From IMG/VR virus record IMGVR_UViG_2548876695_000022, positions 1-32,880 of that record: a stretch of 32,880 nt of DNA; one strand, given 5' to 3'. The position numbers and the translations under genes were made by a program. The DNA is from a virus. Its lineage: Duplodnaviria > Heunggongvirae > Uroviricota > Caudoviricetes. Within the stretch, counting starts at the first letter, position 1. The number at the start of each line of letters is the position of its first letter. The notes beneath the pieces are model-generated. The model did not search any database and was not told where the DNA came from. It saw only the letters and a program-made list of their open reading frames with translations. Positions 2,723 through 28,366 of the stretch are shown here, one piece after another.

Positions 2723-2730
2723 GGTAAGGC

Positions 2731-3096: not shown

Positions 3097-3587
3097 TCAG
3101 GAAAAATAAAATGACCACACGTAAGAAAAAAACGGCAGTTTCCGAGGCAGCCGTGATGGAGGCAATCCGGGAAGCACTTGAGGGGGCTGATCCACGCACT
3201 GCCGGGCTGACAGAGCAACTGGCAAAGGGATATGTGGATCTGCTTGATGGTCTGCCGTTTGGTGAGACCCGTGAATATCGTGTCACGTTCCGGGAACTGA
3301 CAGCGAAAGACAGTATTGACGCAGAAGCAGAAGCCGAGCGCGTGGTGGAGACAAACAATGGCCCGATGCTGATAGCGTCTCCGTCGTTACGCGGTGTTGC
3401 ACTGCTGCGCCGTCAGATTGCCGCAGTGGGAGACATTGAAGGTCCGTTGTCACCCCGTCAGATTGGACAGTTAAGCGAGCGCGATCTCTCCCGCCTGATG
3501 GCAGCGGTCAGCCTGCTGGATACCGCGCTTGCCGGAAAGCTGGCAGCTGACCGGGGGCGATCAGGCGCAGTGTCGGGATCAGATTGA
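3093..3587 (+). CDS. tail assembly chaperone (Mu gp41 position)
   Basis: 164-aa ORF between tube and tape measure; an overlapping alternative frame runs to the tape-measure start. Confidence 0.6.
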   Translation: MIRKNKMTTRKKKTAVSEAAVMEAIREALEGADPRTAGLTEQLAKGYVDLLDGLPFGETREYRVTFRELTAKDSIDAEAEAERVVETNNGPMLIASPSLRGVALLRRQIAAVGDIEGPLSPRQIGQLSERDLSRLMAAVSLLDTALAGKLAADRGRSGAVSGSD

Positions 3588-3711
3588 AGAAGCGGCAATT
3601 ATCCTGGGGATGGTGACAAAAAGCGGTCCGGAATGGGCGCTTAACCTCCCCCTGTCGCAACTTTACCGGCACTGCCGACAGACAGAAAAAATCATCAGAA
3701 CGAAGCAGTAA
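3499..3711 (+). other. alternative-frame extension of the tail chaperone (putative programmed-frameshift product, +1/-2 frame)
   Basis: A frame offset +1 from the chaperone is open from 3499 to the stop at 3709-3711, 2 nt before the tape-measure ATG at 3714, and overlaps the chaperone 3' end (3499-3587). Confidence 0.4.
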
Positions 3712-3713
3712 GT

Positions 3714-12871: not shown

Positions 12872-13432
12872 ATGCTGATTGGCTATATACGCGTATCAAC
12901 AAATGACCAGAACACAGGTTTACAAAGAAATGCGCTGGAATGTGCAGGATGTGAGCAGATTTTTGAAGATAAAATGAGTGGTAAAACGACACAGCGGCCG
13001 GGACTGAAGCGGGCACTGAAGAAACTAAAACCCGGTGACACACTGATGGTCTGGAAACTGGACAGGCTGGGGCGCAGTATGCGCCACCTTGTTGCGCTGA
13101 CAGATGAATTACAGCAACAGGGGATAAATTTTCGTAGTCTTACTGACAACATTGATACGTCAACCCCCATGGGGCGCTTCTTTTTTCACATAATGGGTGC
13201 GCTGGCAGAAATGGAGCGTGAATTAATTGTCGAACGGACACGGGCTGGTCTTGCAGCTGCCCGTGAAAGGGGACGAACCGGCGGCAGACCCCGTCGTCTC
13301 ACGCAGGAACAATACGAGCAGGTCGGGCGTTTACTGGCCGGGGGTGTCAGTCGAAGACAGGTGGCACTTATTTTTGATATCGGCCTTTCAACCCTTTATC
13401 GTTATTATCCTGCGAGCGTTTCGGAAAAATAA
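12872..13432 (+). CDS. gin: serine DNA invertase (Gin/Hin/Pin/Cin family)
   Basis: 186-aa protein MLIGYIRVSTNDQNTGLQRNALECAGCEQIFEDK...RLGRSMRHL...GRPRRLTQEQYEQ, near-identical in pattern to Mu Gin including the catalytic Ser region and C-terminal HTH; AAGGAAGG RBS. Confidence 0.9.
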   Translation: MLIGYIRVSTNDQNTGLQRNALECAGCEQIFEDKMSGKTTQRPGLKRALKKLKPGDTLMVWKLDRLGRSMRHLVALTDELQQQGINFRSLTDNIDTSTPMGRFFFHIMGALAEMERELIVERTRAGLAAARERGRTGGRPRRLTQEQYEQVGRLLAGGVSRRQVALIFDIGLSTLYRYYPASVSEK

Positions 13433-13522: not shown

Positions 13523-15580
13523 ATGAATATTATGACGTCCAAATGGGTTCAACTATCATCAATGCCCGGAAACTTTACCGTTAAAGTTTCCGGTGGTACA
13601 GCGGCATTTCTTGAGGCTCCCTTTCCTCCTGCTGAAACGAAAGGAGGAATGACATTTGCTGACTGTCTCATCAGTTTTAATACACAGGATTGCCTGTGGG
13701 TAAGGCCAGTATCCGGTGATCCGAACGTGGAAATTACCGGAGCGGGTATTGGTGCTGTCATTCCGTTAAGTGCTGATGTTGCCGGTACTGCTGAACCGTC
13801 AGACTGGGATAATGCAGAAACACATACCCGTCCGGCAGGAAATGAAACGGCTTCCAGCTCCCCTTCCTGGTATTACGTGATTGTTATAGCCGGCCAGTCC
13901 AATGCTTCATCTTATGGTGAAGGGTTGCCCCTTCCGGATTCTTATGATCGTCCTGATCCACGTATTATGCAGCTGGCACGCAGGAATACACAAACCCCCG
14001 GAGGTATTCCCTGCAAATACAATGAAATCATTCCAGCAGATCACTGCCTTCATGATGTTCAGAATATGAGTCTGCTGAACCATCCAAAAGCAGACCTGAA
14101 AAAAGGGCAGTATGGTTGTGTGGGGCAGGGACTTCATATTGCGAAAAAAGTATTACCGGTGATTCCTGCTGATGCCGGGATTTTACTGGTTCCCTGTGCC
14201 CGTGGCGGCTCTGCTTTTACAACCGGCGCAGTTGGCTCATTCGATCCGGCAAGTGGTGCAGCCGAGGCGTCACTACGCTGGGGAGTGGATACCCCACTGT
14301 ATCAGGATCTTGTCAGTCGAACTAAAGCGGCACTTGAGGCGAATCCAAAGAATGTGCTGTTATCTGTCGTATGGATTCAGGGGGAAGGAGACCTTAAAGC
14401 GACCCCGGCCCAGCATGGTGCCCAGTTTACTGCGATGGTGAAAAAATTCCGTGCGGATCTTGGTGCTTTCTCCGGTCAGTGTATTGGTGGTTCATCAGAC
14501 AGTGTGCCGTGGTTATGTGGTGACACAACCTATGACTGGAAAGAGAAGAACCCGGCGGCATATGAAACCATTTATAGCGGATATAAAAACCGGGCTTCCG
14601 AGAACATTCACTTTGTTCCACTGATGCACGATGAGTTCGGTAATAAAACCGCGACCAACCTGCCGGAGCACGACCCGGATATCGCTTCTGCCGGGTATTA
14701 TGGTGCGGAATCACGGGGAGATGGCAACTGGACAACAGCATCCAGGGCAACCCATTTTAGCTCCTGGGCGCGCCGTTTTCTGGTCTCAGATCGTTTTGCA
14801 TCAGCAATTCTTAAATATGCAGGTCTGACCTCTGCATTTATTGCCGGTGTGGCCCCTGATGGTGAAGCCCTGCCTCAGCCCGCGCCGGGTGGGAAACCGG
14901 AAGCGCCGACAGGTAGTCAGCCAGGAGGCAGTGAGTCCCCCCATCCGACATCCCCGTCACTCCGTACGCTGCTTTCACTTAAAGCATCAGCAGGAGAAGC
15001 CCCGGCTCAGGGCTGGAAAATTACAGATGGTACAATCCAGCTGACGGACGAAGGTAAAGCGTTGACCGTATCCAAACAAAGCGGAAAAACCTGGACGCTT
15101 ACCCATGGAACTGATGCAGCCGGTGAACTTCTGAAGCATGGTGGTCAGTTGACCTGTAAATTCCGTCTGTCAGGTGAAGTAAAAGAAGGCCAGTTTGCTC
15201 TGGGTATTTACCTCCACACCGATACGGTCCCGGAAGGTGTAACCATGAGTGGTACAGGCACACCGTTCCTGATGGCGTATTATCTCCAGACAACAGGCGG
15301 CCAGTTAAATCTGATGCACCATAAAACAGGGGGGAATACGAAACTGGGATCATTTGGAGCCTACAATAACCAGTGGCATACACTTGTCCTGAAGTTTACG
15401 GCGGGAAGTGCCCAGGTAACGCCTGTGCTGGATGGCACTCCGGGCCAGGCATTCCAGATGGTGAAAGATGCACTTTCCCCTGCCAAAGATACGCTGACAC
15501 TGACAGATGTCACCAAAGGGGCAACTTATGGCGTGTCTTTTGAGAGCGTTGTCCTTGAGGTTAATACCCCTGCGGCATAA
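13523..15580 (+). CDS. SASA/SGNH-family carbohydrate O-acetylesterase with C-terminal lectin-like domain (prophage cargo, NanS-p-like)
   Basis: 685 aa; motifs VIVIAGQSNASSYGEG and VVWIQGEGD typical of sialate O-acetylesterase (SASA) domains; Pro/Gly-rich linker then a beta-rich C-terminal domain; no signal peptide. Confidence 0.55.
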   Translation: MNIMTSKWVQLSSMPGNFTVKVSGGTAAFLEAPFPPAETKGGMTFADCLISFNTQDCLWVRPVSGDPNVEITGAGIGAVIPLSADVAGTAEPSDWDNAETHTRPAGNETASSSPSWYYVIVIAGQSNASSYGEGLPLPDSYDRPDPRIMQLARRNTQTPGGIPCKYNEIIPADHCLHDVQNMSLLNHPKADLKKGQYGCVGQGLHIAKKVLPVIPADAGILLVPCARGGSAFTTGAVGSFDPASGAAEASLRWGVDTPLYQDLVSRTKAALEANPKNVLLSVVWIQGEGDLKATPAQHGAQFTAMVKKFRADLGAFSGQCIGGSSDSVPWLCGDTTYDWKEKNPAAYETIYSGYKNRASENIHFVPLMHDEFGNKTATNLPEHDPDIASAGYYGAESRGDGNWTTASRATHFSSWARRFLVSDRFASAILKYAGLTSAFIAGVAPDGEALPQPAPGGKPEAPTGSQPGGSESPHPTSPSLRTLLSLKASAGEAPAQGWKITDGTIQLTDEGKALTVSKQSGKTWTLTHGTDAAGELLKHGGQLTCKFRLSGEVKEGQFALGIYLHTDTVPEGVTMSGTGTPFLMAYYLQTTGGQLNLMHHKTGGNTKLGSFGAYNNQWHTLVLKFTAGSAQVTPVLDGTPGQAFQMVKDALSPAKDTLTLTDVTKGATYGVSFESVVLEVNTPAA

Positions 15581-15637
15581 TCGTGACGGCCGGGAATTTA
15601 TCCGGCTGTAACATCAGTTAATAAGAGTGAGGCTTAT

Positions 15638-15817
15638 ATGACATATATAAACGTCTGCCTGCTGTATTTCTGCACGGTGGTTTGTTGTCTGTTGCTTGTC
15701 AGCGGTGGTTATAAAATTATTCGCAATTATTTTCGAAATAAAATTGATGCAGCTGCCGAGGAAAAGATAAAAAGCGGTGCTGTAATGCCGCAGCCGAAAG
15801 ACTCCGGTCAGATTTAA
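15638..15817 (+). CDS. 59-aa small membrane protein (hypothetical)
   Basis: ATG preceded by a GAGTGAGG RBS; MTYINVCLLYFCTVVCCLLLVSGGYKIIRNYFRNK... has one hydrophobic helix then a basic/charged tail; below the ORF-track size cutoff. Confidence 0.35.
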   Translation: MTYINVCLLYFCTVVCCLLLVSGGYKIIRNYFRNKIDAAAEEKIKSGAVMPQPKDSGQI

Positions 15818-15852
15818 TTTTTTGTGAACCAGAAAAGGAAAGGAGAATATTC

Positions 15853-16098
15853 ATGCCAGAGATTAAAGGCACGGTTACTGAAGAGCTTGTCAAACAGGCA
15901 CTTTATTCTGAAGAAGTGAACCGCGTGCTGAAGGCGCAGGTTCGCAAGGATTTTGAGGCACAAATCGACGCATATGTTGATGAAGTGCTGGCCCGAATGG
16001 TTGGTCGTTCTCCGGCTGAAAACAGCACGGAAAATGAGCCTCAACCCGTAGAGCAACCAGAGCCGGTTCAGCCCGGAACTGACGGTACTATGATGTAA
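15853..16098 (+). CDS. 81-aa acidic hypothetical protein
   Basis: Strong RBS AAAGGAAAGGAG before the ATG; helical N-terminal half and a Pro/Glu-rich C-terminus. Confidence 0.45.
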   Translation: MPEIKGTVTEELVKQALYSEEVNRVLKAQVRKDFEAQIDAYVDEVLARMVGRSPAENSTENEPQPVEQPEPVQPGTDGTMM

Positions 16099-16107
16099 CA
16101 ATACCGA

Positions 16108-16127
16108 CCGGCAGGTTTCCCTGCCGG
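16108..16127. terminator. bidirectional hairpin between the convergent 81-aa and zinc-ribbon genes
   Basis: Perfect 8-bp stem CCGGCAGG-tttc-CCTGCCGG with T-rich flanks on both strands. Confidence 0.5.
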
Positions 16128-16136
16128 GTGAATTTG

Positions 16137-16307
16137 TTAATGCACGTTTTGTGTATTTTCCCTCCGGGGAGAACAGGCAGGACATATCAGCATCCTGAAA
16201 CAGGAAGCATTTTTTGGTTTGTATGTCTTGCCATTTTGAGATCGAGAACGGCGATAGATGAGCTGTAAGGGAGTCTTACAGGCAGGGCAAACAGGCTCTT
16301 TATCCAT
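16137..16307 (-). CDS. 56-aa zinc-ribbon protein (CPAC...CPAC), function unknown
   Basis: Start at the internal ATG with an AAGGAG RBS 9 nt upstream; MDKEPVCPACKTPLQLIYRRSRSQNGKTYKPKNASCFRMLICPACSPRREN has two CxxC pairs; the ORF track lists 16137..16331. Confidence 0.45.
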   Translation of the reverse strand: MDKEPVCPACKTPLQLIYRRSRSQNGKTYKPKNASCFRMLICPACSPRRENTQNVH

Positions 16308-16415
16308 GATAAAGATCTCCTTTTTATGCATCTCTGCTTTACAGGAGACCGGGGAATATCATAGGATACGCCACGAGCTCGAAGTAAAGCATTGATGCAA
16401 GTTTTTACAGATTGA

Positions 16416-16454
16416 CCCAGCATAGTTCCAGCTATGCTGGGTTTCACTTTTATG
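16416..16454 (+). terminator. rho-independent terminator-like hairpin (+ strand)
   Basis: Perfect 10-bp stem CCCAGCATAG-ttccag-CTATGCTGGG followed by TTTCACTTTTATG; the exact window centre falls in this element. Confidence 0.45.
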
Positions 16455-16713
16455 TAGTATCCTGTTGATTTGAAACATACTACATATACGCGCGATCCTA
16501 CCTTCACTGTATAAAAAGTCAATAAAATGATCATTTTATGATCGTTTTCACCACCTAACTCTTCGTTTCTTTAAGTAAATAATCACCGCCCTGAATCATT
16601 GTTGATGACTTTTAAATCTATTTGTTGTATCAATTAAACAAATCGAATCGATCGTTTTTGTCGATCGATTGCATGAGAAAGGCATCAACAACAAAGCAGG
16701 AGGTTATGCGGCC
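16451..16713 (+). promoter_or_regulatory. com-mom upstream control region (palindromes, GATC cluster, RBS)
   Basis: 10-bp inverted repeat TATGTAGTAT/ATACTACATA (16451-16460 and 16477-16486) with 16-bp spacer; five GATC sites at 16494, 16529, 16540, 16650 and 16663; dyad AATCGATCG-tttttgt-CGATCGATT at 16646-16670; AGGAGG 11 nt before the com ATG. Confidence 0.5.
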
Positions 16714-16914
16714 ATGTATCGAAACATACGGTGCCGACACTGCAATAAGCTACTGGCACGGGCCAGTTTCAGTTATCTGGAAGTAAAATGTCCGCGCTGT
16801 AAAACCCTCAATCAAATCACATCTCCGAGCGCCACAGAGCACCCCACATACACAAGGAAATCCTGTCGTGGGGAACAGAAAGCAAGTCACATCCCGTATC
16901 ATCAGCACGCCTGA
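16714..16914 (+). CDS. com: Com zinc-finger translational activator of mom
   Basis: [35 protein letters not shown] matches the Mu Com zinc-finger pattern (IRCKNCNKLL...CPRCK); the 3' end overlaps the downstream gene as in Mu. Confidence 0.8.
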
Positions 16915-17605
16915 ACTTATTCGCTATAACGACAATATCGTTGGTTATGGCTCCCGTGAGTTGCGGGTTGAGACAATAAGTTGCTGGCTGGCCAGACTGG
17001 TTATCGTCAATAAACATTACAGCCACCGTTTCGTAAATAATTCCTACCTTCATCTGGGTATATTTTCAGAACGGGAACTTGTTGGCGTAATGCAATGGGG
17101 TTACGCCCTTAACCCAAACAGTGGTGCACGCGTCGTAACGGGTACGCAGAACCGAGAATATATGGAGCTTAACCGGCTATGGATGCATGACTGTATGCCG
17201 AGAAACTCCGAATCAAGGGCAATCAGTTACGCGCTCAAGCTAATCAGGCAGCTTTATCCGCAGGTACAGTGGGTTCAGTCGTTTGCAGATGAGCGTTGTG
17301 GCTGTCTTGGTGTCGTGTATCAGGCCAGCAATTTTGATTATGTAGGCAGCCATGAATCAACATTCTATGAACTTGATGGCGAGTGGTATCACGAGATTTG
17401 CAGGAGTGCCATTAAACGAGGCGGACAACGAGGTGAACATCTGAGGGCTAATATCGACAGAGCCAGTGTGCATAAGTTCCGACAGTTTCGTTACATCCGG
17501 TTTCTGAACAAGAGGGCCAGAAAACGCCTCAACACAAAGCTATTCAAAGTCCACCCTTACCCAAAACCACAAACAGTTAAAACTGGTTTGAAAGAGAGTG
17601 AATGA
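16868..17605 (+). CDS. mom: Mom DNA-modification (anti-restriction) protein
   Basis: 245-aa ORF with GTG start overlapping com, in the Mu position after gin; the com-mom pairing is diagnostic. Confidence 0.75.
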
Positions 17606-17644
17606 GCGCTTAAAAACTCATTCTAAAACTCAAAAGAAAAGCGC

Positions 17645-17725
17645 CGATTTAGTATCAAATAAGTTGCGTATCGGCGTTTTTCAGCGGTATCAAATGAAAT
17701 GCAAATCGGTATCAAAAAAATCGCC
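17645..17725. repeat. three direct repeats (G)GTATCAAA in the mom-distal intergenic region
   Basis: Copies start at 17652, 17686 and 17708, plus GTATCGG at 17668; candidate transposase end-binding sites of the Mu-like element or an operator for the downstream operon. Confidence 0.4.
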
Positions 17726-17747
17726 GCGCTATAAACAGCTAAAGCAG

Positions 17748-18404
17748 ATGCGGGAAACGCTGGCAAAAGCTGACCTTCCCCCGCGTAAGCGCCAGCGCCT
17801 TTTATGGCGTATTGCAAAGCTGGGCATTGTCGCAGCGGCAAAACGTCACCAGCGCCAGCAGGCGGCCCCGGACGGTACGCCGTGGGAGCCGCGCAAGCGT
17901 GGCAAAGGGAAGATGTTAAAAGGGCTGCCCAAGCTGTTGGCCGTGCGCGAAATGCCGGAGATTCAGGGGGTAAGAATTTACCTCAAGGGCGGGAACTACC
18001 GGAACGGGACGAAGCCCATCGCGGCGGGTCTGGTCGGCGCGGTCCAGCAGGACGGCGCACGGATCCAGATGAAAGCCAGTAACGCCCCGCGTAAGCCGCA
18101 GGCTGACAAGCCAGCGCTACCGCGACAGGCCAAGCGTCTGCGGGCGCTGGGTTACAAAACCCGCAAGGGCAAACGCTGGGTTAAGCCGTCCAGCAAGCAA
18201 ATCATGGAAACCATGAGCATGGCCCAGGCGGGATTACTGATTCGAAAACTGAAAGGCACACCCTCAAAACGCACATGGACCATTGATATTCCTGGGCGCG
18301 TTTTTCTGGGGGTGAGCAACGACGAATTTAACCAAATTATTGCGCGGCAAATGCAGGCAATCGGCTTCGGCTGGGACGTCAACGCGCAGCAAATCAGGGG
18401 GTAA
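17748..18404 (+). CDS. virion morphogenesis / tail completion protein (P2 gpS / Mu G-like)
   Basis: Pattern RKRQRLLWRIAK...QQAAPDGTPWEPRKRGKG...IPGRVFLGVSNDEF resembles the gpS-type tail completion family; start uncertain (ORF track begins with GTG at 17598; ATG at 17748 chosen, no strong RBS). Confidence 0.45.
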   Translation: MRETLAKADLPPRKRQRLLWRIAKLGIVAAAKRHQRQQAAPDGTPWEPRKRGKGKMLKGLPKLLAVREMPEIQGVRIYLKGGNYRNGTKPIAAGLVGAVQQDGARIQMKASNAPRKPQADKPALPRQAKRLRALGYKTRKGKRWVKPSSKQIMETMSMAQAGLLIRKLKGTPSKRTWTIDIPGRVFLGVSNDEFNQIIARQMQAIGFGWDVNAQQIRG

Positions 18405-18406
18405 AA

Positions 18407-19549
18407 ATGACCTGGCCGAATGTCAACGTCAGTCAGAAAAACCGCTTCAACGGCACAACGAACGACGTCGAGCGCGTCATCCTCTTTGTGGGTTACGGCG
18501 ACACTAACATCGGGAAAACCCAGTCGCTGAATACCGGCAGCGATCTGGATAAAGCCCTGGGCGACAAAGACAGCCCGTTAAAAAATATGGTGGCCGCAGC
18601 GGCCAATAACGCCGGTCAGAACTGGTTTGCTTACGTGCATGTGCTGGCAGAACCAGACAAGGAAGCCGAGGGCTATAAACCAGATGAAGACTGGATGAAC
18701 GCGGTCAAGATGGCCCAGAGCGTGGCATCCGTGGAAGGGGTTTTCCTGGTATTTGATACCGACGAAGTGGCAACCATCAACCGTGCAACGGAAATGCGTA
18801 TCACCTTGCAGGCTAATTATGGGCGATTTATCTGGTTTGGCCTTGCGATAGGCGGGCCGAAACAGGGCGAAGCATGGGCCGATTATGTGACGCGCCTGGC
18901 ACAACTCCAGGACGGTATTGCGTCACCGGGTGTGCAACTGGTCCCGCGTCTGTGGGGCAATGAACCCGGCGTCCTGGCCGGTCGCTTGTGTAACCGTTCG
19001 GTGACGGTGGCAGACAGCCCCGCCCGCGTTGCAACCGGCGCAGTCACCGCGCTGGGGCGTGACAAACTGCCGGTTGACGGGACGGGAGCCGAAATTGATC
19101 TGTCCGTGTTGCAGTCCCTGCAGGTGAACCGCTACAGCGTGCCGATGTGGTATCACGACTATGACGGCATCTACTGGGCTGACGGTCGCACCCTGGACGT
19201 TGAAGGCGGCGATTATCAGGTCATTGAAAACGTGCGCGTGGTTGATAAAGCATCCCGACGCGTCCGTCTGCGTGCTATCCCCAAAATTGCCGATCGTTCA
19301 CTGAACAGCACACCGGGCAGCATTGCCGCGCATGAAACCTATTTCGGCAAGCCGCTGCGTGAAATGGCGATTTCAACCCAGATCAATGGCGTCGAATTTC
19401 CGGGCGAAGTGAAGCCACCAAAGGACGGTGACATCACCATCACCTGGACCAGTAGCGAAGCGGTACAGATTTACCTTGTGGTTCGACCGTATGAGAGCGC
19501 GAAAGAAATCAGCGTCAGCATCGAACTGGACACCTCACTGGAGAGCTAA
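18407..19549 (+). CDS. putative tail sheath protein
   Basis: 380-aa ORF directly upstream of a tube-sized ORF in a tail module; assignment by size and position only. Confidence 0.45.
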   Translation: MTWPNVNVSQKNRFNGTTNDVERVILFVGYGDTNIGKTQSLNTGSDLDKALGDKDSPLKNMVAAAANNAGQNWFAYVHVLAEPDKEAEGYKPDEDWMNAVKMAQSVASVEGVFLVFDTDEVATINRATEMRITLQANYGRFIWFGLAIGGPKQGEAWADYVTRLAQLQDGIASPGVQLVPRLWGNEPGVLAGRLCNRSVTVADSPARVATGAVTALGRDKLPVDGTGAEIDLSVLQSLQVNRYSVPMWYHDYDGIYWADGRTLDVEGGDYQVIENVRVVDKASRRVRLRAIPKIADRSLNSTPGSIAAHETYFGKPLREMAISTQINGVEFPGEVKPPKDGDITITWTSSEAVQIYLVVRPYESAKEISVSIELDTSLES

Positions 19550-19552
19550 TCA

Positions 19553-20008
19553 ATGACTGAACGTATTAGCGGCGGATCGTTCGATGTGAACTACGACAGC
19601 ATCATGATTCACGTCGAAAACGCCACCGTCACCATTACGGATAACAGCGCCGTTGCGCAGTCGCGTGGCATCCCGAACGGCCACACGAAAGGGTCAGTTT
19701 CGGCGGATGTGGAAGTCGAAGTCGATTCCCAGAGCTTTAAAAAGTTTACCGCCGTTGCCCGTGCCGCAGGTTCCTGGCGAGCCATTCCGGCAAAGGACTT
19801 TTTGTTCTATGCCAATGCGGGGGATGACGAAGAAAAAATCGAGGTGTTTGGCTGTGTTCCGACGCTGTCCGACATCGTCAACATCAACCCCAACGAGGCC
19901 AGCAAAACCACGAAAAAAATTAAATTCATGGTGACAAGCCCGGACTTTGTCGCGATTGACGGCGTGCCGTACCTGTCAGCCCGTGACACTCGAGATCTGA
20001 AAGGCTGA
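19553..20008 (+). CDS. putative tail tube protein
   Basis: 151-aa ORF following the sheath-sized gene; assignment by size and position only. Confidence 0.45.
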   Translation: MTERISGGSFDVNYDSIMIHVENATVTITDNSAVAQSRGIPNGHTKGSVSADVEVEVDSQSFKKFTAVARAAGSWRAIPAKDFLFYANAGDDEEKIEVFGCVPTLSDIVNINPNEASKTTKKIKFMVTSPDFVAIDGVPYLSARDTRDLKG

Positions 20009-20012
20009 CACG

Positions 20013-20324
20013 ATGATGAACGGAGAAACGTCACTGCTTGAAAAGCTGTTGCTTATCGGGGCCGTGATCGGCCTGGGGCAACTGATGGTCAGCAATGAGC
20101 GAATCACAACCCGTCTGCTGGTCGGGCGGATGATTCTGGGATCTGCAGTCGCACCGCTGGCCGCAATCCCGCTGCTGAAATTCCCCGATATGCCGGAACT
20201 GGTCGTCATTGGGCTGGCCTGCGCCCTGGGCATTCTGGGAAGTGCGTTTATTGAGGCGGGGCTAAAGCGCTGCCTGGACATGTATATCAAGCGATGGGGG
20301 AGCAAGCGCAATGAAACTGAGTGA
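20013..20324 (+). CDS. holin (three predicted transmembrane segments)
   Basis: 103 aa with hydrophobic stretches LLLIGAVIGLGQLMV, LLVGRMILGSAVAPLAAIPLL and LVVIGLACALGILGSAFI and a charged C-terminus; immediately upstream of the endolysin. Confidence 0.6.
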   Translation: MMNGETSLLEKLLLIGAVIGLGQLMVSNERITTRLLVGRMILGSAVAPLAAIPLLKFPDMPELVVIGLACALGILGSAFIEAGLKRCLDMYIKRWGSKRNETE

Positions 20325-20649
20325 AAAACAGCAACTTTTTACGGTGATGATCGCCAGCCTGATTCATTTTGCCCAGGAAAAAGGCTATCGCCTGACGTTT
20401 GGCGAAGCGTACCGCACGCCGGAACAGGCCGCGCTTAACGCAAAAAAAGGGAGCGGCATTACTAACAGCCTGCATACCCAGCGCCTTGCGGTGGATTTTA
20501 ACCTGTTTATTAACGGCGAATACCAGACCGACAGCGCCGCATATCGCCCCCTGGGCGAATACTGGGAATCTATCGGCGGATCGTGGGGTGGACGTTTCAG
20601 TAAGCCGGACGGGAACCATTTCAGTCTTGAGCATAACGGGGTTCGCTGA
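20311..20649 (+). CDS. endolysin, peptidase M15-type zinc peptidase
   Basis: 112 aa with H...D...H zinc-site spacing (HTQRLAVDF ... DGNHFSLEH) characteristic of M15 cell-wall peptidases; overlaps the holin 3' end. Confidence 0.7.
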   Translation: MKLSEKQQLFTVMIASLIHFAQEKGYRLTFGEAYRTPEQAALNAKKGSGITNSLHTQRLAVDFNLFINGEYQTDSAAYRPLGEYWESIGGSWGGRFSKPDGNHFSLEHNGVR

Positions 20650-21032
20650 TGCGCAATTTGCTGGGTCTTTTGCTGATTCTGGCAGCTGCAATGTCAGCGG
20701 GCTGGCAGGCGCATGACTGGCACGACGCAAAGCTGAAACTCGCTGCCAGTGAAGCGGCAGAACAAACGCGCCAGATTGTTGTTGAGGTGACACAGCAGTC
20801 TGGTGAAGCGCTGGAAGCAAAACTCGCGGAGCTGAGGGCCAATGAAATTCATACGGAACGGGTTATCCGCACGGAAACCATTAAATCGGTTTTTAGCAAT
20901 GTTTGTGCTTCTGATGATTACGTCCGGTTGTTCAACGAAAGTGCAGATCAAGCCGAACGAAAATTATCAGGAAAACCAGCTGGCACTTTGCCCGGTCACG
21001 TTGCCACGTCTGGCCGGACCGACCGGAAGTGA
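20649..21032 (+). CDS. i-spanin (Rz-like)
   Basis: N-terminal transmembrane segment MRNLLGLLLILAAAMSAGW followed by a charged coiled-coil-like region; ATG overlaps the endolysin stop (TGATG). Confidence 0.6.
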   Translation: MRNLLGLLLILAAAMSAGWQAHDWHDAKLKLAASEAAEQTRQIVVEVTQQSGEALEAKLAELRANEIHTERVIRTETIKSVFSNVCASDDYVRLFNESADQAERKLSGKPAGTLPGHVATSGRTDRK

Positions 21033-21138
21033 CTTTGACGCGGCGCTGAAAGCCTACCGGCTGATGTATACCGACTGCGCCGCCCGACATAACGCCCTGG
21101 TGGGCATCATTCGACAACGTAAGGAATTAGCACAATGA
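20842..21138 (+). CDS. o-spanin (Rz1-like lipoprotein), overlapping i-spanin in the +1 frame
   Basis: Signal peptide plus lipobox-like LLMITSG-C; starts inside the i-spanin gene and extends beyond it; alternative start at 20899. Confidence 0.55.
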   Translation: MKFIRNGLSARKPLNRFLAMFVLLMITSGCSTKVQIKPNENYQENQLALCPVTLPRLAGPTGSDFDAALKAYRLMYTDCAARHNALVGIIRQRKELAQ

Positions 21139-21404
21139 GCAAATCGAAAAAAATCGCCATGACCGTGGCGGGCGTAAATCTGAGCTTTGAGCCGAATAAA
21201 ACCGCGTTCAACAACCTGCTTAACGAAATGACCATGACCAATAAAGTTGCCCCAATGGTGACGTATCTGGGCCGCATTGTTGATGCCGAGTGTAAAGAGG
21301 CGCTCAACAAGCTGATGGAAGATTATCCGGGCTGCGAAATGCAGATCGTCGAGAAGGTTAACGAAATTTACTCCCCAAAACTTGAGATCGAAGTAAAAAA
21401 CTGA
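21135..21404 (+). CDS. tail assembly chaperone (P2 gpE / lambda G-like)
   Basis: 89-aa ORF just upstream of the tape measure; ends on a slippery A_AAA_AAC heptamer with a -1 frame open to the tape-measure start. Confidence 0.6.
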   Translation: MSKSKKIAMTVAGVNLSFEPNKTAFNNLLNEMTMTNKVAPMVTYLGRIVDAECKEALNKLMEDYPGCEMQIVEKVNEIYSPKLEIEVKN

Positions 21405-21592
21405 CGGCGCGGGTAGCGGCCATTCGCACGAATGCCCTGGAGCAATACCTTGCCTTGCGCCGCTATTACCTCCCGCACGAAGACGACGACGAAGAAAGCA
21501 TCGCCCGCGCCCTGTGGCTGGATGAATATTTCGCCCAGACCCGCGCCAGTAAGACGGCGGAAGGGATAGCAATCGCATTTAACGGAAACTGA
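21395..21592 (+). other. programmed -1 ribosomal frameshift site and extension of the tail chaperone
   Basis: Heptamer A AAA AAC at 21395-21401, seven nt before the zero-frame stop; the -1 frame reads KKLTARVAAIRTNALEQYLALRRYYLPHEDDDEESIARALWLDEYFAQTRASKTAEGIAIAFNGN to a TGA at 21590-21592, 1 nt before the tape-measure ATG (21594). Confidence 0.5.
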
Positions 21593-21593
21593 T

Positions 21594-23708
21594 ATGAGCC
21601 ACCTGGATTTTACCCTGAGCCTGATCGATAAGCTGACGCGGCCATTAAAGACGGCCCAGTCTTCGCTGTCTGGCTTTGCTGAAAAATCGCAGGAGTCTTT
21701 TACAAAAATCGGGATTGGTGCGGCGGCTGTCTGGGGCGTGGCGCAGTCCATCGCGGGCGTGGTGGGTCCGGCGTATGAGATGAACGCCGCGCTTGCAGAA
21801 GTGGGTTCCAAAGGCGTAGCAGAGGACGCGCTGAAGCGTATGTCCGGCGAAGCCATGCGATTCAGTATGCGCTACGGCAAAGGGGCCGTTGATGTGGTCC
21901 GGTCAAGCTACGCGATGAAAGGCGCAATGGCGGGCCTGTCCGATCTGGACCTGCCCCGCGTTACCATCGCGGCCAATACCCTGGCCGCAGGCGTCAAGGC
22001 CAGCGGCGAAGAGGCAGGCGAATACATCGGCGCGATGGCGTCACGTTTCAACGCGGAATTGTCCAGTCTGGGGCATGTGCGTTTTGCCGAAGAGCTGGCA
22101 GGAAAAACGGCGTACATGGTGCAAAACTTCGGCGTGAAAATGCAGACCATGCAGGAGCTTATCGAGGGGACGAAAAGCGCCGGTGCTGACTTTGGCGTCA
22201 GCCTGGATGAACAGTTCGCCGTACTGGGTACGCTTTCGCGCACGCTGGGTACTGAGGCCAGCGGGATCTACGAGCAGTTTTTACGCAGCGCCCCGGCTGC
22301 CGCTGAAAAGCTGGGTATGAGCTTTGTCGATGCCACCGGAAAAATGCTGCCGATGGGCGACATTCTGCAAAAACTCCAGAACAAATACGGGCAGAGCATT
22401 GAAGGGAACGTCAAGGCACAACAGGCGCTGGATGCCGCGTTCGGTGGTGGTGCTGACGTTATCAAAAAGCTGTACGGCCAGCAGGATAAATTAAACCGCA
22501 GCATCACCGAGCTGGGCCGAAATGACGGGATGAAACGCGCCCAGGAAATGGCCGAACGAATGGCTGAGCCGTGGGAACGTATCAAAGCGACATTCTTTGC
22601 CATTCGCGTGGCGATTGGTAACACGCTGTTCCCTATCCTGTCGCCGCTGATGAACCGTATTGCCGACGTGGGGACAAAATTTGCCCGCTGGCTGGATATG
22701 TTCCCGAATATTGCCCGCTGGCTGGGTTACATCACCCTGGGCGTGCTGTCCTTCGGGTTGGCTGGGGCGGCGGTCAATATCGTGATGGGGGTCTTTGGCT
22801 TCACCATGACAGGGCTGGCCGCAATTGCAAAAGTGCTGGGCGGGGCATGGAAACTCCTGTTATGGACGCTCAACCTGTTGCGTCCGTCCCTGCTGACGAC
22901 GCGCATCGGTCTGGCTGCATTGTGGATCCAGTCAAAATTACTGGCGCTGTGGACGGGCGTCTGCCGCATCGCGCTTGCTGCATGGAATATCGCGTTAAAG
23001 GCCGGAGCCATTGCCATGCGGGTTTACGGTGCGGCGACCATGTTTGCCGGGGCGGCAATGCAACTCCTGATGAGTCCGATCACTCTGATCGTTGCCGGGC
23101 TGGCACTTCTGGCCGTGGGGGTCTGGTATGTCATCACCCACTGGGAAGAACTGGCGGCAGCAATCATGGATACGTCGGCTTTTGCCTGGGTGATGTCGGT
23201 CGCTGAACAGGTAGGCCAGGTGTTTGCGCAGGTCTGGCAGTCCATCACAGACGGCTGGGCCGTGGTGGTTGATTTCTTTGCCGGTCTTTCCCCGCTTGCC
23301 ACCTTTGAAGGGTTCGCACAAACCATCGGCGGGGTATTCAGCAAACTTTTTGACGTCCTCAAAAATACCTTTGCGTCTACCTATAACTGGATTGTCGAGA
23401 AGTTAAACAAGATCCCCGGCGTAAACATCGACCTGAAAACCGTTTCGCCACCGGCAGCGGCTGCCGTTCCGGCAAATGCGGTCATTCCTGACAGTGCTGC
23501 AGGTTCATCGAAGCTAAACAGCCCGTCCGTGCTGACGGGGAACCGAATTAATGCAGGCATCCCACGCGGCGGCCTGATGAGTCAGGTTAAAAACGACAGC
23601 AAAACCGCTGTTGATAACCGTAAAACGTGGGGCGATACCTACATCAACGCCCCCAATGGAATCACCCCGGCCCAGCTGGCTGAATGGCAGGAGCTTAACG
23701 CAGGATGA
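21594..23708 (+). CDS. tail tape measure protein
   Basis: 704 aa with a helical N-terminal region, central hydrophobic segments and position after the frameshifting chaperone. Confidence 0.8.
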   Translation: MSHLDFTLSLIDKLTRPLKTAQSSLSGFAEKSQESFTKIGIGAAAVWGVAQSIAGVVGPAYEMNAALAEVGSKGVAEDALKRMSGEAMRFSMRYGKGAVDVVRSSYAMKGAMAGLSDLDLPRVTIAANTLAAGVKASGEEAGEYIGAMASRFNAELSSLGHVRFAEELAGKTAYMVQNFGVKMQTMQELIEGTKSAGADFGVSLDEQFAVLGTLSRTLGTEASGIYEQFLRSAPAAAEKLGMSFVDATGKMLPMGDILQKLQNKYGQSIEGNVKAQQALDAAFGGGADVIKKLYGQQDKLNRSITELGRNDGMKRAQEMAERMAEPWERIKATFFAIRVAIGNTLFPILSPLMNRIADVGTKFARWLDMFPNIARWLGYITLGVLSFGLAGAAVNIVMGVFGFTMTGLAAIAKVLGGAWKLLLWTLNLLRPSLLTTRIGLAALWIQSKLLALWTGVCRIALAAWNIALKAGAIAMRVYGAATMFAGAAMQLLMSPITLIVAGLALLAVGVWYVITHWEELAAAIMDTSAFAWVMSVAEQVGQVFAQVWQSITDGWAVVVDFFAGLSPLATFEGFAQTIGGVFSKLFDVLKNTFASTYNWIVEKLNKIPGVNIDLKTVSPPAAAAVPANAVIPDSAAGSSKLNSPSVLTGNRINAGIPRGGLMSQVKNDSKTAVDNRKTWGDTYINAPNGITPAQLAEWQELNAG

Positions 23709-24040
23709 GTACCGAACCGTTATACATCGACCTTTTGATCACTGACGGCGATTTCACGCTGGACAGCGGCAACGAGCCGCGCCGTTGCGATAACCGCGAC
23801 AGCATCACCCAGGACATTATTCACAGCATTCTGGAAAGCGGTATCACCACCCGCCTGATCGGTGAACGCAGCCCGACAATGCGCGGTGACGTGCTGACGC
23901 AACTGTCCTTACTGGTGGAAAGCGACGAACGTCTGGTCCCAGGAACCATAGTGATCACCGAAGAAACCCTTTCGAGGTTGTATATCACGGCGGAAACCTA
24001 CGATTTCGGCCCTGTCAGTACAGAGGTTAACTATGACTGA
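23705..24040 (+). CDS. baseplate wedge protein (P2 gpW / T4 gp25-like)
   Basis: 111 aa, start overlaps the tape-measure stop; size and position before the J-like gene. Confidence 0.55.
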   Translation: MSTEPLYIDLLITDGDFTLDSGNEPRRCDNRDSITQDIIHSILESGITTRLIGERSPTMRGDVLTQLSLLVESDERLVPGTIVITEETLSRLYITAETYDFGPVSTEVNYD

Positions 24041-25217
24041 GAAACCCGACGTTGATTTCGAAAAGGTACTGAATGACAGCGGGATGCCCGCGACAGAGGC
24101 CGAAATTACGGCGGCATTTAAAGCCACCGTGCAGGCGGAAGGGTTCGTCACAAACACGTCGAGAATGTCACCTTTCTGGCGGCTGATTTCGAAGATTGTC
24201 ACCACGCCGGTGTTATGGCTGCGTGCGGCGCTGATCGATGTGGTTCTGCGCAATATGTTTGTTGCGACTGCCACCGGTCCCATGCTGCGCCTGCTGGCCT
24301 GGGCGGTTCATATCGAGCCTAAACCGGCCAGTGCTGCCGCTGGCGTGCTGCGATTCTTCAAGCTGAATGCGGCGGATGTGGTCGTCGTGCCTGCCGGAAC
24401 ACTGGTGCAAACAGAGCGCATTAACGGCGTGGTTTACGTGCTGGCCGTGAATGAAGACGTGACACTGCCTGCCGGGGTTGAAAGCGGGCTGGTTCCCGTC
24501 ACGGCGACCGGCACCGGCAGCGGCTATAACCTTGCGCCAGGCTATTACCGGATCTTACCTGTTGCAGTAGCTGGAATCGCCAGCGCGGTCAATGAGGACG
24601 AATGGCTGATTACGCCAGGGGCTAACGAGGAAAGCGACGACGAGCTGCGCGACCGCACCCGCAACCAGTTTAATCTGGTGGGGAATTACCACTCTGACGC
24701 TATCTACCGCAGCATGATTGCCAGCGTGCTGGGCCTGAGCATTGATCGCATCTACTTTTTGCACGATGCCCCGCGTGGGCCGGGTACGGCAAATGCTTAT
24801 CTGTTACTGGACAGCGGCGAAATATCACAGCCCTTTATTGATGCGGTTAACGATTATGTGAATACCCAGGGCCACCACGGACACGGTGATGATCTGCAGT
24901 GTTATGCCATGCCGGAAACCAGTCACACCCTGGCGGTTACTGTCTATGTCAAAAGCGTGGAAAACATGGAAGCGGAAGACCTGAGCGCGTTAAAAACCGG
25001 TATTACCGACCTGATTCGTTGCGCGTTTCGCGAGAACGCCAATTACGACGTTAAAAAGACGCAGCCCTATTCGCGCTATTCCTTTTCGAATCTGGGCCGC
25101 GAGATCCACAAGGCTTTTCCGGTTGTCGATTCACTGCATTTTTCACTAACGGATATTGTCAGCGAACTGTCGGTCCCGCGCCTGTCAGGGTTAACGGTGG
25201 AGATTGAAAATGACTGA
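24033..25217 (+). CDS. baseplate J-like protein
   Basis: 394 aa between the W-like and I-like genes, as in the P2 V-W-J-I-H-G operon. Confidence 0.6.
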   Translation: MTEKPDVDFEKVLNDSGMPATEAEITAAFKATVQAEGFVTNTSRMSPFWRLISKIVTTPVLWLRAALIDVVLRNMFVATATGPMLRLLAWAVHIEPKPASAAAGVLRFFKLNAADVVVVPAGTLVQTERINGVVYVLAVNEDVTLPAGVESGLVPVTATGTGSGYNLAPGYYRILPVAVAGIASAVNEDEWLITPGANEESDDELRDRTRNQFNLVGNYHSDAIYRSMIASVLGLSIDRIYFLHDAPRGPGTANAYLLLDSGEISQPFIDAVNDYVNTQGHHGHGDDLQCYAMPETSHTLAVTVYVKSVENMEAEDLSALKTGITDLIRCAFRENANYDVKKTQPYSRYSFSNLGREIHKAFPVVDSLHFSLTDIVSELSVPRLSGLTVEIEND

Positions 25218-25803
25218 GTTTTCGAAGTTGCTTTCCGGTCTGAAATTGCCGTCGTGGCTGAACAAAGGCGACCCCGCCAGGCTGTTGCGTGGCAGCGTGA
25301 AGTTCTGGTCGCAGGTGTACGGGTGGATCACCTGGCCGTTAAAGCAGTTTGACCCGCTGGTTTGCCCTGAGCCGCTGTTGAACCTGATTGCCTGGGAGCG
25401 CGACATCGATCGGTTTAAGGGGGAGCCGCTCGACATCTTCCGCAAGCGGGTGAGTTACGCATTTATCAATGCGCAGCAGGCCGGAGAGGTGGCGGGCTTT
25501 ATTGCCATTTTTGAGCGACTGGGGATTGGTTACGTTGAATTACTGGAACGGCAGGACGGACTCGACTGGGACGTGATTGTCGTTCGAGTGACAAGCAGCC
25601 AGGTTGCGGAAAATGGCGATCTCCTGCTGGAAATCATTCGCAAATATGGGCGCACATGCCGCCGTTACCAGTTTGAAGTAATCGACACCCTGCCACTGAA
25701 TATCAATATTGGCTGGTATCAGGGGGAATATATTTGCTGGCCTGCCACCCTGGGCGATGTGAATAACCAGTCAGAAGCAACATATAGCGCAAGTTTGAAG
25801 TAG
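25210..25803 (+). CDS. tail protein I-like (P2 gpI)
   Basis: Motif [16 protein letters not shown] resembles P2 gpI CPANLLPWLAWAFSVD; ATG at 25210 with GGTGGAG RBS (ORF track begins at TTG 25204). Confidence 0.6.
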
Positions 25804-25814
25804 AGGGAATATTA

Positions 25815-27779
25815 ATGTCACAGGCCGTCATTACAAAAGCATTTGCAGAGTGGAAAGCCCAGCAGGCAATTAATAACCAGCCCGTCACGCTGGATGAGTT
25901 TATTTTTGCTTATATTCCGGGGCTGGATGCTGACAAGCCGATTAATAATACTGAAACAACGCCAGCGGAAGATAAAATAGTTTGTCGTCAGGCGGTGAAT
26001 AAAGCCGGTGTTGTGAATGAAAACTCTGTCGTTTATTCCGTTACCCTGGGGGCGGATGTGGGCGATTTTGATTTCAACTGGATCGGGCTGGCAAATAAGG
26101 CAACGGGTACACTGGCGATGATTATTCACGCCCCGACCCAACGAAAAATTAAAAACGCAGACGGTCAGCAGGGAAACGTTCTTGTTCGTTCCATGCTGAT
26201 GGAATACAGCGGAGCCAGGGAAGCGACCGAAATTAACACTCCGGCAGAGACATGGCAGATTGATTTTACTGCCCGACTGGTGGGAATGGATGAACGCCAG
26301 CGCCGGGAAAATATCGATCTGTATGGCGCAGCGGCATTTTTTGATTCGGGCTATCTGGTCGCAAAGTCCGGCAATCAGTTTTTTGTCACAAAGGGGGCGG
26401 GATATGTCGCCGGATTGCGTGCCGAATTGCCCGCAAACTTCAATATCACAGTATCCGCGAAACCGACAAAAATCTGGCTTGATGTGAGCTGGACCGGGAC
26501 GTTAACAAGCGAATGGGCTGTACAGAGCAAAATTACTGTTGCTGCAGATCTTGCCGATTATGTGCTGGGCGGTGTGCAGCATTATGTCTTTGCGGTGGCG
26601 AGTATTGATGCTGCCGGAAATATCACTGACCTGCGCCCGAAAGGCACGCTAAATGACCAGGCGGCCAGCGATGCGCTGAAAAAGCATGAACAATCCCGAA
26701 ATCACCCTGATGCATCAACCAGTGAAAAGGGTTTTGTGCGGTTAAGCAGTGAAACGAACAGTGATTCCGAAGCGATGGCCGTCACGCCAAAAGCATTAAA
26801 AGCGGTGAATGAGAATGCAAATGGCCGCGTTCCGGCATCACGAAAAGTGAACGGCCATGCCCTGAATGGAGATATCAATGTCACTTCACGGGATATTTTT
26901 GACGGCCAGGTTATAGCGATTGGTGCAAATAAGAATCTGGATGATTACCAGGTACCGGGGCTTTATTTTCAGGAAGCGAACAACAATACCAGTGCAGCAA
27001 TGAATTACCCGGAGAATAGCGCGGGTTCTCTGATGGTACTGAGAGGTGCCGGAGTCACTCAGGTTTATCGTGTGTACAACAGCTCGCGCAGTTATTCGCG
27101 CAGCAAGTATTCAACGCTGGCATGGACGCCGTGGATGCCAGAAGATTCTTACCCTGTCGGCGCACCTATCCCCTGGCCATCGGATGTTACCCCGACAGGG
27201 TACGCCTTAATGCAGGGGCAGCCCTTTGATAAAGCGGTCTATCCATTGCTAGCGATTGCCTATCCTGCGGGGATTATCCCGGACATGCGAGGCCAGACGA
27301 TTAAGGGTAAACCGAACGGTCGCGCGGTACTCTCGTATGAACAGGATGGTGTTATATCGCATACCCACGGAGCCAGTATTTCCGATACCGATTTGGGGAC
27401 GAAATACACCAGCTCTTTTGATTATGGTTCAAAACCAACAACCAGTTTTGACTACGGCAATAAATCCTCCACTGAGGGTGGGTGGCACGCACATAACTTT
27501 CGTTATTGCGCAACGTCTGCATACCGGGATACCCCCGGTCAGGGGCTGGGGATGCATTCGTCTAATGTTTCATGGGCGGCGGGAGATCGCATTGAGGGAA
27601 GCGGTAATCATGCTCATGTGACATGGATCGGCCCTCATGATCACTGGGTGGGTATTGGTGCGCATAACCATTATGTGGTTATGGGCTATCACGGACATAC
27701 AGCGACCGTTCATGCCGCAGGAAATGCGGAAAATACCGTTAAAAATATTGCGTTTAACTACATTGTGAGGCTTGCCTGA
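25815..27779 (+). CDS. tail fibre protein (P2 gpH-like)
   Basis: 654 aa; [52 protein letters not shown] matches the conserved P2 H motif (EHEQSRRHPDAS...KGFTQLSSATNSTSETLAATPKAVK); His-rich C-terminal region. Confidence 0.8.
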
Positions 27780-28366
27780 TGACTTTTGAAATGACCGGAG
27801 AAAACCGGACAATTACCATCTATAACCTGCGTGCTGATACAAATGAATTTATCGGGAAAAGTGATGGGTTTATCCCTGCTAATACCGGTTTGCCTGCTAA
27901 CAGTACCAATATTGCGCCACCGCCGATGAAAGCCGGTTTTGTCGCTGTATTTAATTCTGCGTCAGAAAAATGGTCACTTGTTGAAGACCATCGCGGGAAA
28001 ATTGTTTACGACATTCTCACCGGGAAATCCATCACGATTGATGAATTAGGTCAGTTACCTGACGACGTTGTTTCCGTTGCGCCGGAAGGCCATTTTGTTA
28101 AATGGAATGGTAAAAAATGGGTGCATGATGCTGACGCAGAAAAAACGGCACAGATTACACAGGCTACACAGCAAAAAGACAGTCTTCTGGCGCTGGCTGC
28201 ATCAAAAATTGCCCCATTACAGGATGCTGTTGATCTGGATATTGCAACGGAAGAGGAAACAGCGCTTTTGCTGGCGTGGAAAAAATACAGGGTTTTGATT
28301 AATCGTATTAAGCCAGAAGATGCGCCAGATATTGACTGGCCGGAGGTTCCGGGCGATGTGGCGTGA
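27779..28366 (+). CDS. tail fibre assembly chaperone (lambda Tfa / P2 gpG-like)
   Basis: 195 aa, [26 protein letters not shown]...GLPANSTNIAPP...ALLLAWKKYRVLINRIKPEDAPDIDWPEVP, highly characteristic of Tfa proteins; ATG overlaps the fibre stop. Confidence 0.85.
   Translation: MTFEMTGENRTITIYNLRADTNEFIGKSDGFIPANTGLPANSTNIAPPPMKAGFVAVFNSASEKWSLVEDHRGKIVYDILTGKSITIDELGQLPDDVVSVAPEGHFVKWNGKKWVHDADAEKTAQITQATQQKDSLLALAASKIAPLQDAVDLDIATEEETALLLAWKKYRVLINRIKPEDAPDIDWPEVPGDVA

Follow-up and report, generated by a model that had tools for sequence, protein, structure and literature searches.

The 32,880-nucleotide (nt) stretch analysed here at its full length, hereafter the window, is IMG/VR record IMGVR_UViG_2548876695_000022 from a virus of the Caudoviricetes. 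Our subject is a group of three small genes close to its centre, encoding proteins of 59, 81 and 56 amino acids (aa). The window covers the right end of a Mu-like prophage, in which tail genes, the remnant of an invertible segment, gin (12872-13432), an insert, com and mom follow one another. In an identical prophage annotated by PGAP, gin is followed by genes for a DUF6645 protein, DUF1378, DUF826, a hypothetical protein, Com and Mom. In Mu, 94 bp separate gin from com; here the distance is 3281 bp, so that the approximately 3.3 kb holding an esterase gene and the three small genes represent an insertion of accessory DNA. An earlier sequence-only reading had described three small open reading frames (ORFs) with ribosome-binding sites and a perfect 8-bp hairpin separating the convergent ones. 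All three ORFs are present (Table 1), and the hairpin lies exactly between both stop codons. The AT-rich patch in which the genes were said to sit exists at about 15600-15900 (40% GC) and not at 15900-16200 (52% GC). The same reading had taken the three genes for one module. We come to a different view, to which we assign a probability of roughly 0.6: the insert is made of two independent units joined at the hairpin at 16108-16127, a NanS-p cassette running rightward and a swappable zinc-ribbon unit running leftward, with an accessory mechanism for each.

Table 1. Features of the insert and of its right flank, in window coordinates.
Feature	Positions	Strand	Basis and remarks
NanS-p-like sialate O-acetylesterase gene, first of the cassette	13523-15580	+	SASA and DUF6645, no DUF1737
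Imperfect hairpin, gap between esterase and DUF1378 genes	15583-15612	+	RNAfold -17.5 kcal/mol for 15575-15640
DUF1378 gene, 59-aa single-pass membrane protein	15638-15817	+	GAGG ribosome-binding site; PF07125; phrog_494
DUF826 gene, 81-aa acidic protein, predicted cytoplasmic	15853-16098	+	AGGAG ribosome-binding site; PF05696; phrog_311
Perfect 8-bp hairpin CCGGCAGG/CCTGCCGG	16108-16115 and 16120-16127		4-nt loop; between stop codons
C4 zinc-ribbon gene, 56 aa, basic (isoelectric point, pI, 9.8)	16137-16307	-	AAGGAG 9 nt upstream; CPAC at residues 7-10 and 42-45
Ribosome-binding-site segment of the swappable cassette (16136-16325)	16308-16325	-	Right homology breakpoint 16326-16333
Conserved leader, about 180 nt	16326-16490	-	Common to slot types A, B and D and Salmonella relatives
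Conserved hairpin in leader	16414-16443		Terminator scan; on the + strand a T-run follows, terminator-like, facing com
Putative sigma-70-like promoter, TTGACT-16 nt-TAGGAT	16495-16522	-	Hexamers kept, spacer diverged in L099 and strain M18
GATC-containing palindrome, mom control region	16646-16670		Aligns with the Dam/OxyR region of Mu (gin-com interval); repeat scan
com	16714-16914	+	Pfam Zn_ribbon_Com 3.3e-12; PGAP of identical prophage; backbone gene right of insert
mom	16868-17605	+	Pfam Mom 8.4e-77; PGAP of identical prophage; backbone gene right of insert

The rightward unit is held together by linkage. Two overlapping samples of IMG/VR loci were assembled, 80 seeded on DUF826 and 80 on DUF1378 (the best 80 of 232 and the best 80 of 288 matches, respectively), and neighbouring genes were identified by tblastn. 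The order NanS-p, DUF1378, DUF826 and the spacing of the genes were constant in every sampled locus with enough flanking DNA. The only exceptions to the trio were contig ends and an IS3-family insertion in one lambdoid phage (L082, 1-1160), where the element, with two transposase ORFs, lies upstream of DUF826 and DUF1378 has been removed. About 48 of the DUF826-seeded loci are lambdoid, with Q on one side and holin S and R on the other, and about 32 are Mu-like, preceded by gin and continuing with com-mom or with com and a C5-methyltransferase gene. In the lambdoid phages VT2-Sakai and PhiR12_4, the gene for a SASA esterase (NanS-p) is followed by DUF1378, DUF826 and holin S. The window carries the same cassette on one strand (SASA-family esterase, DUF1378, DUF826; 13523-16098), flanked by gin and com and not by Q/stx and holin S. 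DUF1378 and DUF826 are known families of uncharacterised role, and their neighbourhood to nanS-p in phages encoding Shiga toxin (Stx) has been noted before; ORFs of both families between nanS-p and S are mentioned in PMC10462455. No paper linking nanS-p to Mu-like phages was found in the literature searched, and a mention of Sp18 in PMC13502914 was judged unrelated.

The esterase has 685 aa and matched SASA (1.6e-13) and DUF6645 (8e-26) in Pfam as well as phrog_143 (2e-273); its start is uncertain, with candidates at 13523, 13532 and 13562 (PGAP). DUF1737, the N-terminal domain of lambdoid NanS-p, was not matched in Pfam, and an unmatched N-terminal region of about 110 aa (13523-13850) stands in its place. 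Among Mu-like prophages the esterase alleles differ strongly (57-75% identity). For the rightward cassette, no promoter candidate was convincing.

The sequence-only reading could name no family for any of the three small products. This still holds for the zinc ribbon, while the profile searches it had called for assigned the 59-aa and the 81-aa proteins to Pfam families; in the structure searches, Foldseek gave no significant match. Residues 1-48 of the 59-aa protein matched PF07125 (DUF1378) at 83.8 bits (E = 9.2e-24), above the gathering cut-off of 25 bits. The protein also matched phrog_494 (4e-29), and its identical RefSeq entry is named 'DUF1378 family protein'. As described earlier, it combines one transmembrane helix with a basic tail: the hydrophobic maximum (Kyte-Doolittle 2.46) falls at residues 4-22, and seven of seven Lys and Arg lie in the tail, residues 25-59. 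We infer an N-out, C-in topology in the inner membrane. DUF1378 contains an invariant motif, LxSGGY..R......ID..A, in which SGGY directly follows the membrane helix, and a basic helix is kept beside the membrane. A PDB sequence search with the DUF1378 profile gave nothing meaningful, and nothing relevant came from NCBIfam or PADLOC. Among type I toxin families (Hok, Ldr, TisB, Ibs, Sho and others) no counterpart emerged, Pfam giving DUF1378 only, and an Rfam scan of 15500-17000 returned a single chance-level small RNA match.

The 81-aa protein matched PF05696 (DUF826) over residues 1-52 at 56.5 bits (E = 3.1e-15; cut-off 25 bits) and phrog_311 (5e-30), and RefSeq names it 'DUF826 domain-containing protein'. 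Its earlier description as acidic and Pro/Glu-rich was borne out (pI 4.37, 16 Asp/Glu versus 8 Lys/Arg, 6 Pro in residues 53-81). AlphaFold2 predicts helices at residues 10-17 and 20-50, with a predicted local distance difference test score (pLDDT) above 90 for 21-50, followed by a disordered tail at 56-81, of which the C-terminal tip, GTDxTMM, is kept within the Mu-like group. Foldseek with this model found zero matches in the PDB, and a PDB sequence search with DUF826 gave nothing meaningful. A scan of genome contigs with the DUF826 alignment produced 133 pattern matches, 0 of them confirmed. YdfR of the Qin prophage, considered as a DUF826 protein, was rejected, being a DUF1327 protein that does not align with the 81-aa protein; YdfR is reported to bind RNase E in a 2026 paper. 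In one E. coli variant (P0067), a natural deletion joins roughly the first 35 DUF826 codons to DNA that lies upstream of com, removing the DUF826 C-terminus and the whole zinc-ribbon gene.

Immediately downstream of DUF826, the perfect hairpin ends the cassette and forms the left border of a variable slot, the homology shared between slot types ending at 16127-16135. It folds at about -21 kcal/mol on either strand and is retained in all Mu-like types among the sister prophages with altered stem sequences. A terminator-like hairpin also follows DUF826 in two lambdoid copies.

All three small genes are under purifying selection. Mu-like and lambdoid copies share 38-50% identity in DUF826 and 41-59% in DUF1378, and amino-acid identity between cassette alleles overall is 38-75%; synonymous sites are near saturation and both ORFs are intact. 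For DUF1378 and DUF826, the proportion of non-synonymous differences (pN) was 0.12-0.41 versus 0.4-0.9 for synonymous ones (pS), and the corresponding rate ratio (dN/dS), where computable and with comparisons between Mu-like lineages included, was 0.1-0.4 (0.12-0.38 for DUF826). The zinc-ribbon ORF compared with its Salmonella homologue gave pN 0.32 and pS 0.78, and its polymorphic sites within E. coli number 7 synonymous and 4 non-synonymous (binomial p = 0.003). The genes are therefore real, conserved small genes, and no homology to structural phage proteins, which would have spoken against the sequence-only reading, was found for their products.

The window and L002 have identical DUF826 proteins (100%) and share 59% in DUF1378. 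Since the two identities differ, recombination has taken place inside the cassette; the trio has nevertheless stayed together. One locus (L084, IMGVR_UViG_2617270951_000022, 96-5136) is a hybrid, in which gin and a Mu-type esterase lead into a DUF826 of the lambdoid type, holin S and endolysin. The N-terminus of its DUF1378 is of the Mu type (LQLI) and the rest of the lambdoid type, which gives the protein a chimeric look. This suggests recombination between a Mu-like and a lambdoid prophage through the common cassette, although an assembly artefact is possible.

The zinc-ribbon gene is distributed differently. It is absent from the lambdoid cassettes and replaced in most Mu-like copies. A word-indexed protein search returned three near-identical proteins only, and a full HMMER scan over 1.84 billion representatives contributed a single distant homologue, P0095 (53 aa, 46% identity), which retains both CxxC pairs and the GKTYxPK loop and whose cluster is widespread in Salmonella enterica. 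In Salmonella, the homologues occupy the same position in Mu-like prophages and are oriented divergently from com-mom or com-methyltransferase; gin, NanS-p, DUF1378 and DUF826 are absent from these prophages. The co-occurrence analysis proposed earlier tied DUF1378 to DUF826 and left the zinc-ribbon gene on its own, inherited apart from the other two. In one Salmonella locus (L099, 6338-7274), three more leftward small genes (108, 81 and 122 aa, no Pfam family) follow the zinc-ribbon homologue, and the 108-aa protein is distantly related to the gene of slot type C in E. coli described below (29% identity, E = 2e-11).

Both CxxC pairs noted before are present in the 56-aa protein. We place its start at 16307 and not at the in-frame ATG at 16331 (64 aa), because the latter ATG is out of frame in Salmonella L302, L304 and L305. 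AlphaFold2 models the protein with two strands between the knuckles (pLDDT 68.6), and Foldseek against the PDB gave no match at E <= 0.001, the hits being generic zinc ribbons only. In PADLOC-DB 2.0, 0 families were matched at E <= 1 by the three small proteins, the esterase or a 154-aa fusion protein considered below.

Comparison of E. coli Mu-like prophages defined the borders of the leftward unit. Homology to the window halts at 16127-16135 and resumes at 16326-16333; as these breakpoints bracket the ORF and its ribosome-binding site, the swappable cassette is exactly these two elements (16136-16325). Four unrelated types of cargo were seen in the slot, which therefore has at least four alternatives. 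Type A, found in the window, is the leftward 56-aa zinc ribbon. Type B pairs a leftward ORF of 68-76 aa with a rightward ORF of 66-78 aa, type C is a leftward ORF of 97-101 aa related to one Salmonella gene, and type D, from strain M18, is a leftward gene for a 175-aa zinc-ribbon-plus-membrane protein. No function was found for the alternative slot genes in Pfam or PHROG.

Upstream of the slot, the conserved leader shares 95% identity with type B loci and 77% with strain M18. Its stretch of approximately 55 nt next to the start codon hardly varies, with 78-88% identity to Salmonella L099 versus 58% for the ORF. The minimum free energy of the leader is -67 kcal/mol (z = -6.45 versus shuffled sequence), and no Rfam family was found for it. 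Compensatory stem changes in L007, L002, L099 and L305 were observed for the leader hairpin. In some type B prophages (L027, L033), a block of the leader comprising this hairpin and 'GCATCAATGCTTTACTTCG' is duplicated in tandem. A scan of genome contigs with a 17-nt leader pattern yielded chance matches in unrelated phyla, none confirmed by blastn, the pattern being too short.

The predicted leftward promoter has the consensus TTGACT-16-TAnGAT across types A, B and D and Salmonella. A GATC at 16494-16497 overlaps its -10 hexamer, and two further GATC (16529, 16540) lie upstream of the -35 hexamer. Five GATC sites fall within 170 bp (16494-16666), compared with one per approximately 250 bp across the window. 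Transcription of the zinc-ribbon gene from this promoter may respond to Dam methylation. Equating the promoter with momP2 of Mu was unsupported, as alignment with Mu is limited to the GATC palindrome, some 130 bp to the right of the promoter.

For the rightward unit, we propose that DUF1378 would span the inner membrane, its basic tail facing the cytoplasm, and that the acidic, long-helix DUF826 would dock on this tail. NanS-p is not known to carry a signal peptide. Because the enzyme must act on a substrate outside the cell, the pair could work with NanS-p by, for example, placing or releasing it at the envelope; DUF1378 and DUF826 would then be a membrane-anchored accessory to NanS-p and not a toxin-antitoxin pair. 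For the leftward unit, the zinc-ribbon protein is expected to bind nucleic acid, and its gene may be a dispensable accessory, perhaps regulatory or in defence or anti-defence. A bolder version is unlikely in our estimation: that the pair is an obligate, membrane-anchored NanS-p device of two proteins, overlooked so far in NanS-p studies and positioning or releasing the signal-peptide-less enzyme, and that the slot to the left of the mom promoter is, in Mu-like phages, a Dam-gated hotspot of interchangeable defence or anti-defence genes expressed from a conserved structured leader, in which the zinc ribbon founds one family.

Other roles for the small genes have to be weighed against this proposal. 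The single module of the sequence-only reading, devoted to toxin-antitoxin, exclusion or regulatory functions, in which the membrane protein would be the toxin and its neighbours would neutralise and regulate it, draws on the 59-aa protein being built like a type I toxin (one transmembrane helix, basic tail) and on the adjacency of the genes, the last two of which converge on a common hairpin. It is extremely improbable, since the separate inheritance of the zinc-ribbon gene and the DUF1378/DUF826 pair contradicts it, Salmonella carrying the zinc-ribbon homologue without the pair. Toxin-antitoxin and defence profiles in Pfam, NCBIfam and PADLOC gave zero matches, the pair was never apart from the 2-kb esterase gene in the samples, and DUF826, a predicted long helix with a disordered tail, has no DNA-binding fold, so that it does not resemble a type II system either. 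These observations also bear on a narrower idea, in which DUF1378, with or without DUF826, is a prophage-expressed superinfection-exclusion or abortive-infection membrane protein, or the two form a toxin and its neutraliser. Small single-pass inner-membrane proteins from phage morons can exclude phages, HK97 gp15 being an example, and the acidic DUF826 could neutralise the basic DUF1378 tail. Nevertheless, the membrane protein comes first, its partner lacks a DNA-binding domain, strict linkage to an enzyme gene is atypical of autonomous toxin-antitoxin or exclusion genes, and the lambdoid copies sit in a late operon and not in a lysogen-expressed position, which makes this idea distinctly doubtful. 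That DUF1378 and DUF826 are lysis-timing or holin-modulating accessories hitchhiking with nanS-p fits their place in the Q-dependent late operon of lambdoid phages, where holin S comes directly after them and endolysin R lies further along, and the pairing of a membrane protein with a small cytoplasmic helical one; RI/RIII of T4 offer an analogue of this layout. In Mu-like prophages, however, the pair is under purifying selection beside gin and com, no holin S or endolysin R homologue was found in the fetched flanks, and the constant neighbour is the esterase gene and not a holin, hence we regard this role as unlikely.

Two further explanations concern the zinc-ribbon ORF. PGAP calls a 154-aa coding sequence that is intact in O157 but 'frameshifted' in prophages identical to the window, and phrog_26524 matches the upstream 115-aa frame, from which the ORF might be read as the 3' part of a frameshifted pseudogene. 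The hypothetical protein in question, WP_115801860.1 (O157; 16137-16599, - strand, in the window; L006 3538-4002), arises where a single extra G joins the leader frame to the zinc-ribbon frame, and this G occurs in one of seven alleles. The upstream part looks non-coding, having indels of lengths not divisible by three and a hairpin whose stem changes are compensatory. Further, a conserved ribosome-binding site and an MDKE start belong to the ORF itself, the Salmonella homologues are free-standing (52-53 aa), and the O157 allele itself retains an in-frame ATG (MKEPVCPAC...). A pseudogene is thus scarcely credible; the same non-coding frame appears to underlie phrog_26524, and the RefSeq protein probably results from mis-calling the 56-aa gene together with its leader. 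A dedicated com-mom regulator, as a Com-like RNA binder or a repressor, would suit the divergent position relative to com-mom in both E. coli and Salmonella prophages, the very basic protein and the conserved, GATC-rich leader and control region. It is nonetheless very unlikely, as sister prophages with the same com-mom and leader carry unrelated genes or none at that position. The sequence-only reading had likewise compared the protein with Ogr/Com-type regulators, yet Zn_ribbon_Com matches the true com and not the 56-aa ORF, which has no Com-family match and which BLASTP aligns to Com at a zinc knuckle only.

Several observations weigh against the two-unit view or against the functions we attach to it. 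The linkage samples are mostly from E. coli and Shigella and contain many near-identical loci, which are not independent observations, and it is only from linkage that a functional tie of DUF1378 and DUF826 to NanS-p would follow. Published studies with recombinant NanS-p esterases, cited in a review, imply that catalysis does not depend on the small proteins. The first knuckle is altered by C7Y in a naturally occurring zinc-ribbon allele, and deletion variants lacking the gene exist (P0067), so that the zinc-ribbon gene is dispensable. Finally, a long proximal leader stem, derived from an alignment dominated by E. coli, was dropped, as L302 and L304 alter one arm without compensation.

In comparison with known systems, the cassette resembles the nanS-p block of Stx and other lambdoid phages (933W, VT2-Sakai orf42-orf43) in order, spacing, Pfam families and the hairpin after DUF826. 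It differs in lying between gin and com of a Mu-like prophage, far from lysis genes, in an esterase without the N-terminal DUF1737 and in its diverged small proteins. Morons are autonomous add-on genes between backbone genes of related phages, a lambdoid concept of Juhala and Hendrix. The insert is moron-like in separating genes that are adjacent in Mu, in its partly lower GC content and in a leftward unit with a predicted promoter-like site and a closing hairpin; unlike a moron, the rightward cassette has no identified promoter of its own. With Com of Mu and Ogr/Delta of P2/P4, the zinc ribbon shares small size, basic character and four Cys in two CxxC knuckles, and it lies beside com-mom. 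It differs from Com (PF10122) in giving no profile match, the pairwise BLASTP alignment being non-significant and confined to one knuckle, and from Ogr/Delta in that Ogr_Delta is absent from its Pfam matches at E <= 0.1. In contrast to both, its gene is replaceable, and Foldseek found generic zinc ribbons only, none significant. YnfU of the E. coli K-12 Qin prophage is likewise a 56-aa zinc-ribbon or zinc-binding protein, with its gene near a lysis cassette; the zinc ribbon of the window has no YnfU-family match, and BLASTP aligns only 8 residues, the similarity being confined to the zinc knuckles. Temperate phages reportedly have hotspots of variable cargo, such as the P2/P4 defence hotspots described by Rousset et al. 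in 2022. Like these, the slot has conserved flanks and a promoter and leader around unrelated alternative genes at one position, but no slot cargo matches a known defence family (PADLOC for the zinc-ribbon ORF, Pfam and PHROG for the others), and any part played in defence is purely hypothetical.

To the right of the insert, further variation was observed. In several sister Mu-like prophages from both E. coli and Salmonella, mom is replaced directly after com by a C5 DNA methyltransferase-like gene (350 aa, PF00145; L002 7033-8085, L099 4398-5450, and L019, L021 and L034), an alternative DNA-modification gene under the same Com control. The end of the Mu-like prophage was placed near 17733 by comparison of insertion sites, three different sites diverging there; the Mu right-end consensus was absent when up to 3 mismatches were allowed. 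The prophage is inserted into a second one (17733-32880), which encodes a DUF2586 protein, a tape-measure-like protein and tail fibres, and carries an AbiH abortive-infection gene at 31915-32880 (-). An ORF at 17598-18404 crosses the junction and is, as a whole, probably not real.

Overall, the locus is ordinary prophage accessory DNA with a few testable leads, and neither the trio nor the slot amounts to a system of a new kind. What may be new is how strictly the trio is kept, its occurrence in Mu-like prophages and the variable slot with its conserved leader beside mom. In practical terms, the RefSeq annotation 'frameshifted 154-aa hypothetical protein' probably needs reading as a 56-aa gene and its leader. 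The slot lies beside mom, itself an anti-restriction function, and offers a defined place in which to seek new small accessory genes. In Shiga-toxin-producing E. coli, NanS-p esterases are investigated for their contribution to fitness in the mucus layer; if the small neighbours do serve NanS-p localisation or release, studies of the esterase alone would miss part of the system. The common cassette is also a stretch of homology between Mu-like and lambdoid prophages, which matters for prophage-driven rearrangement in these pathogens.

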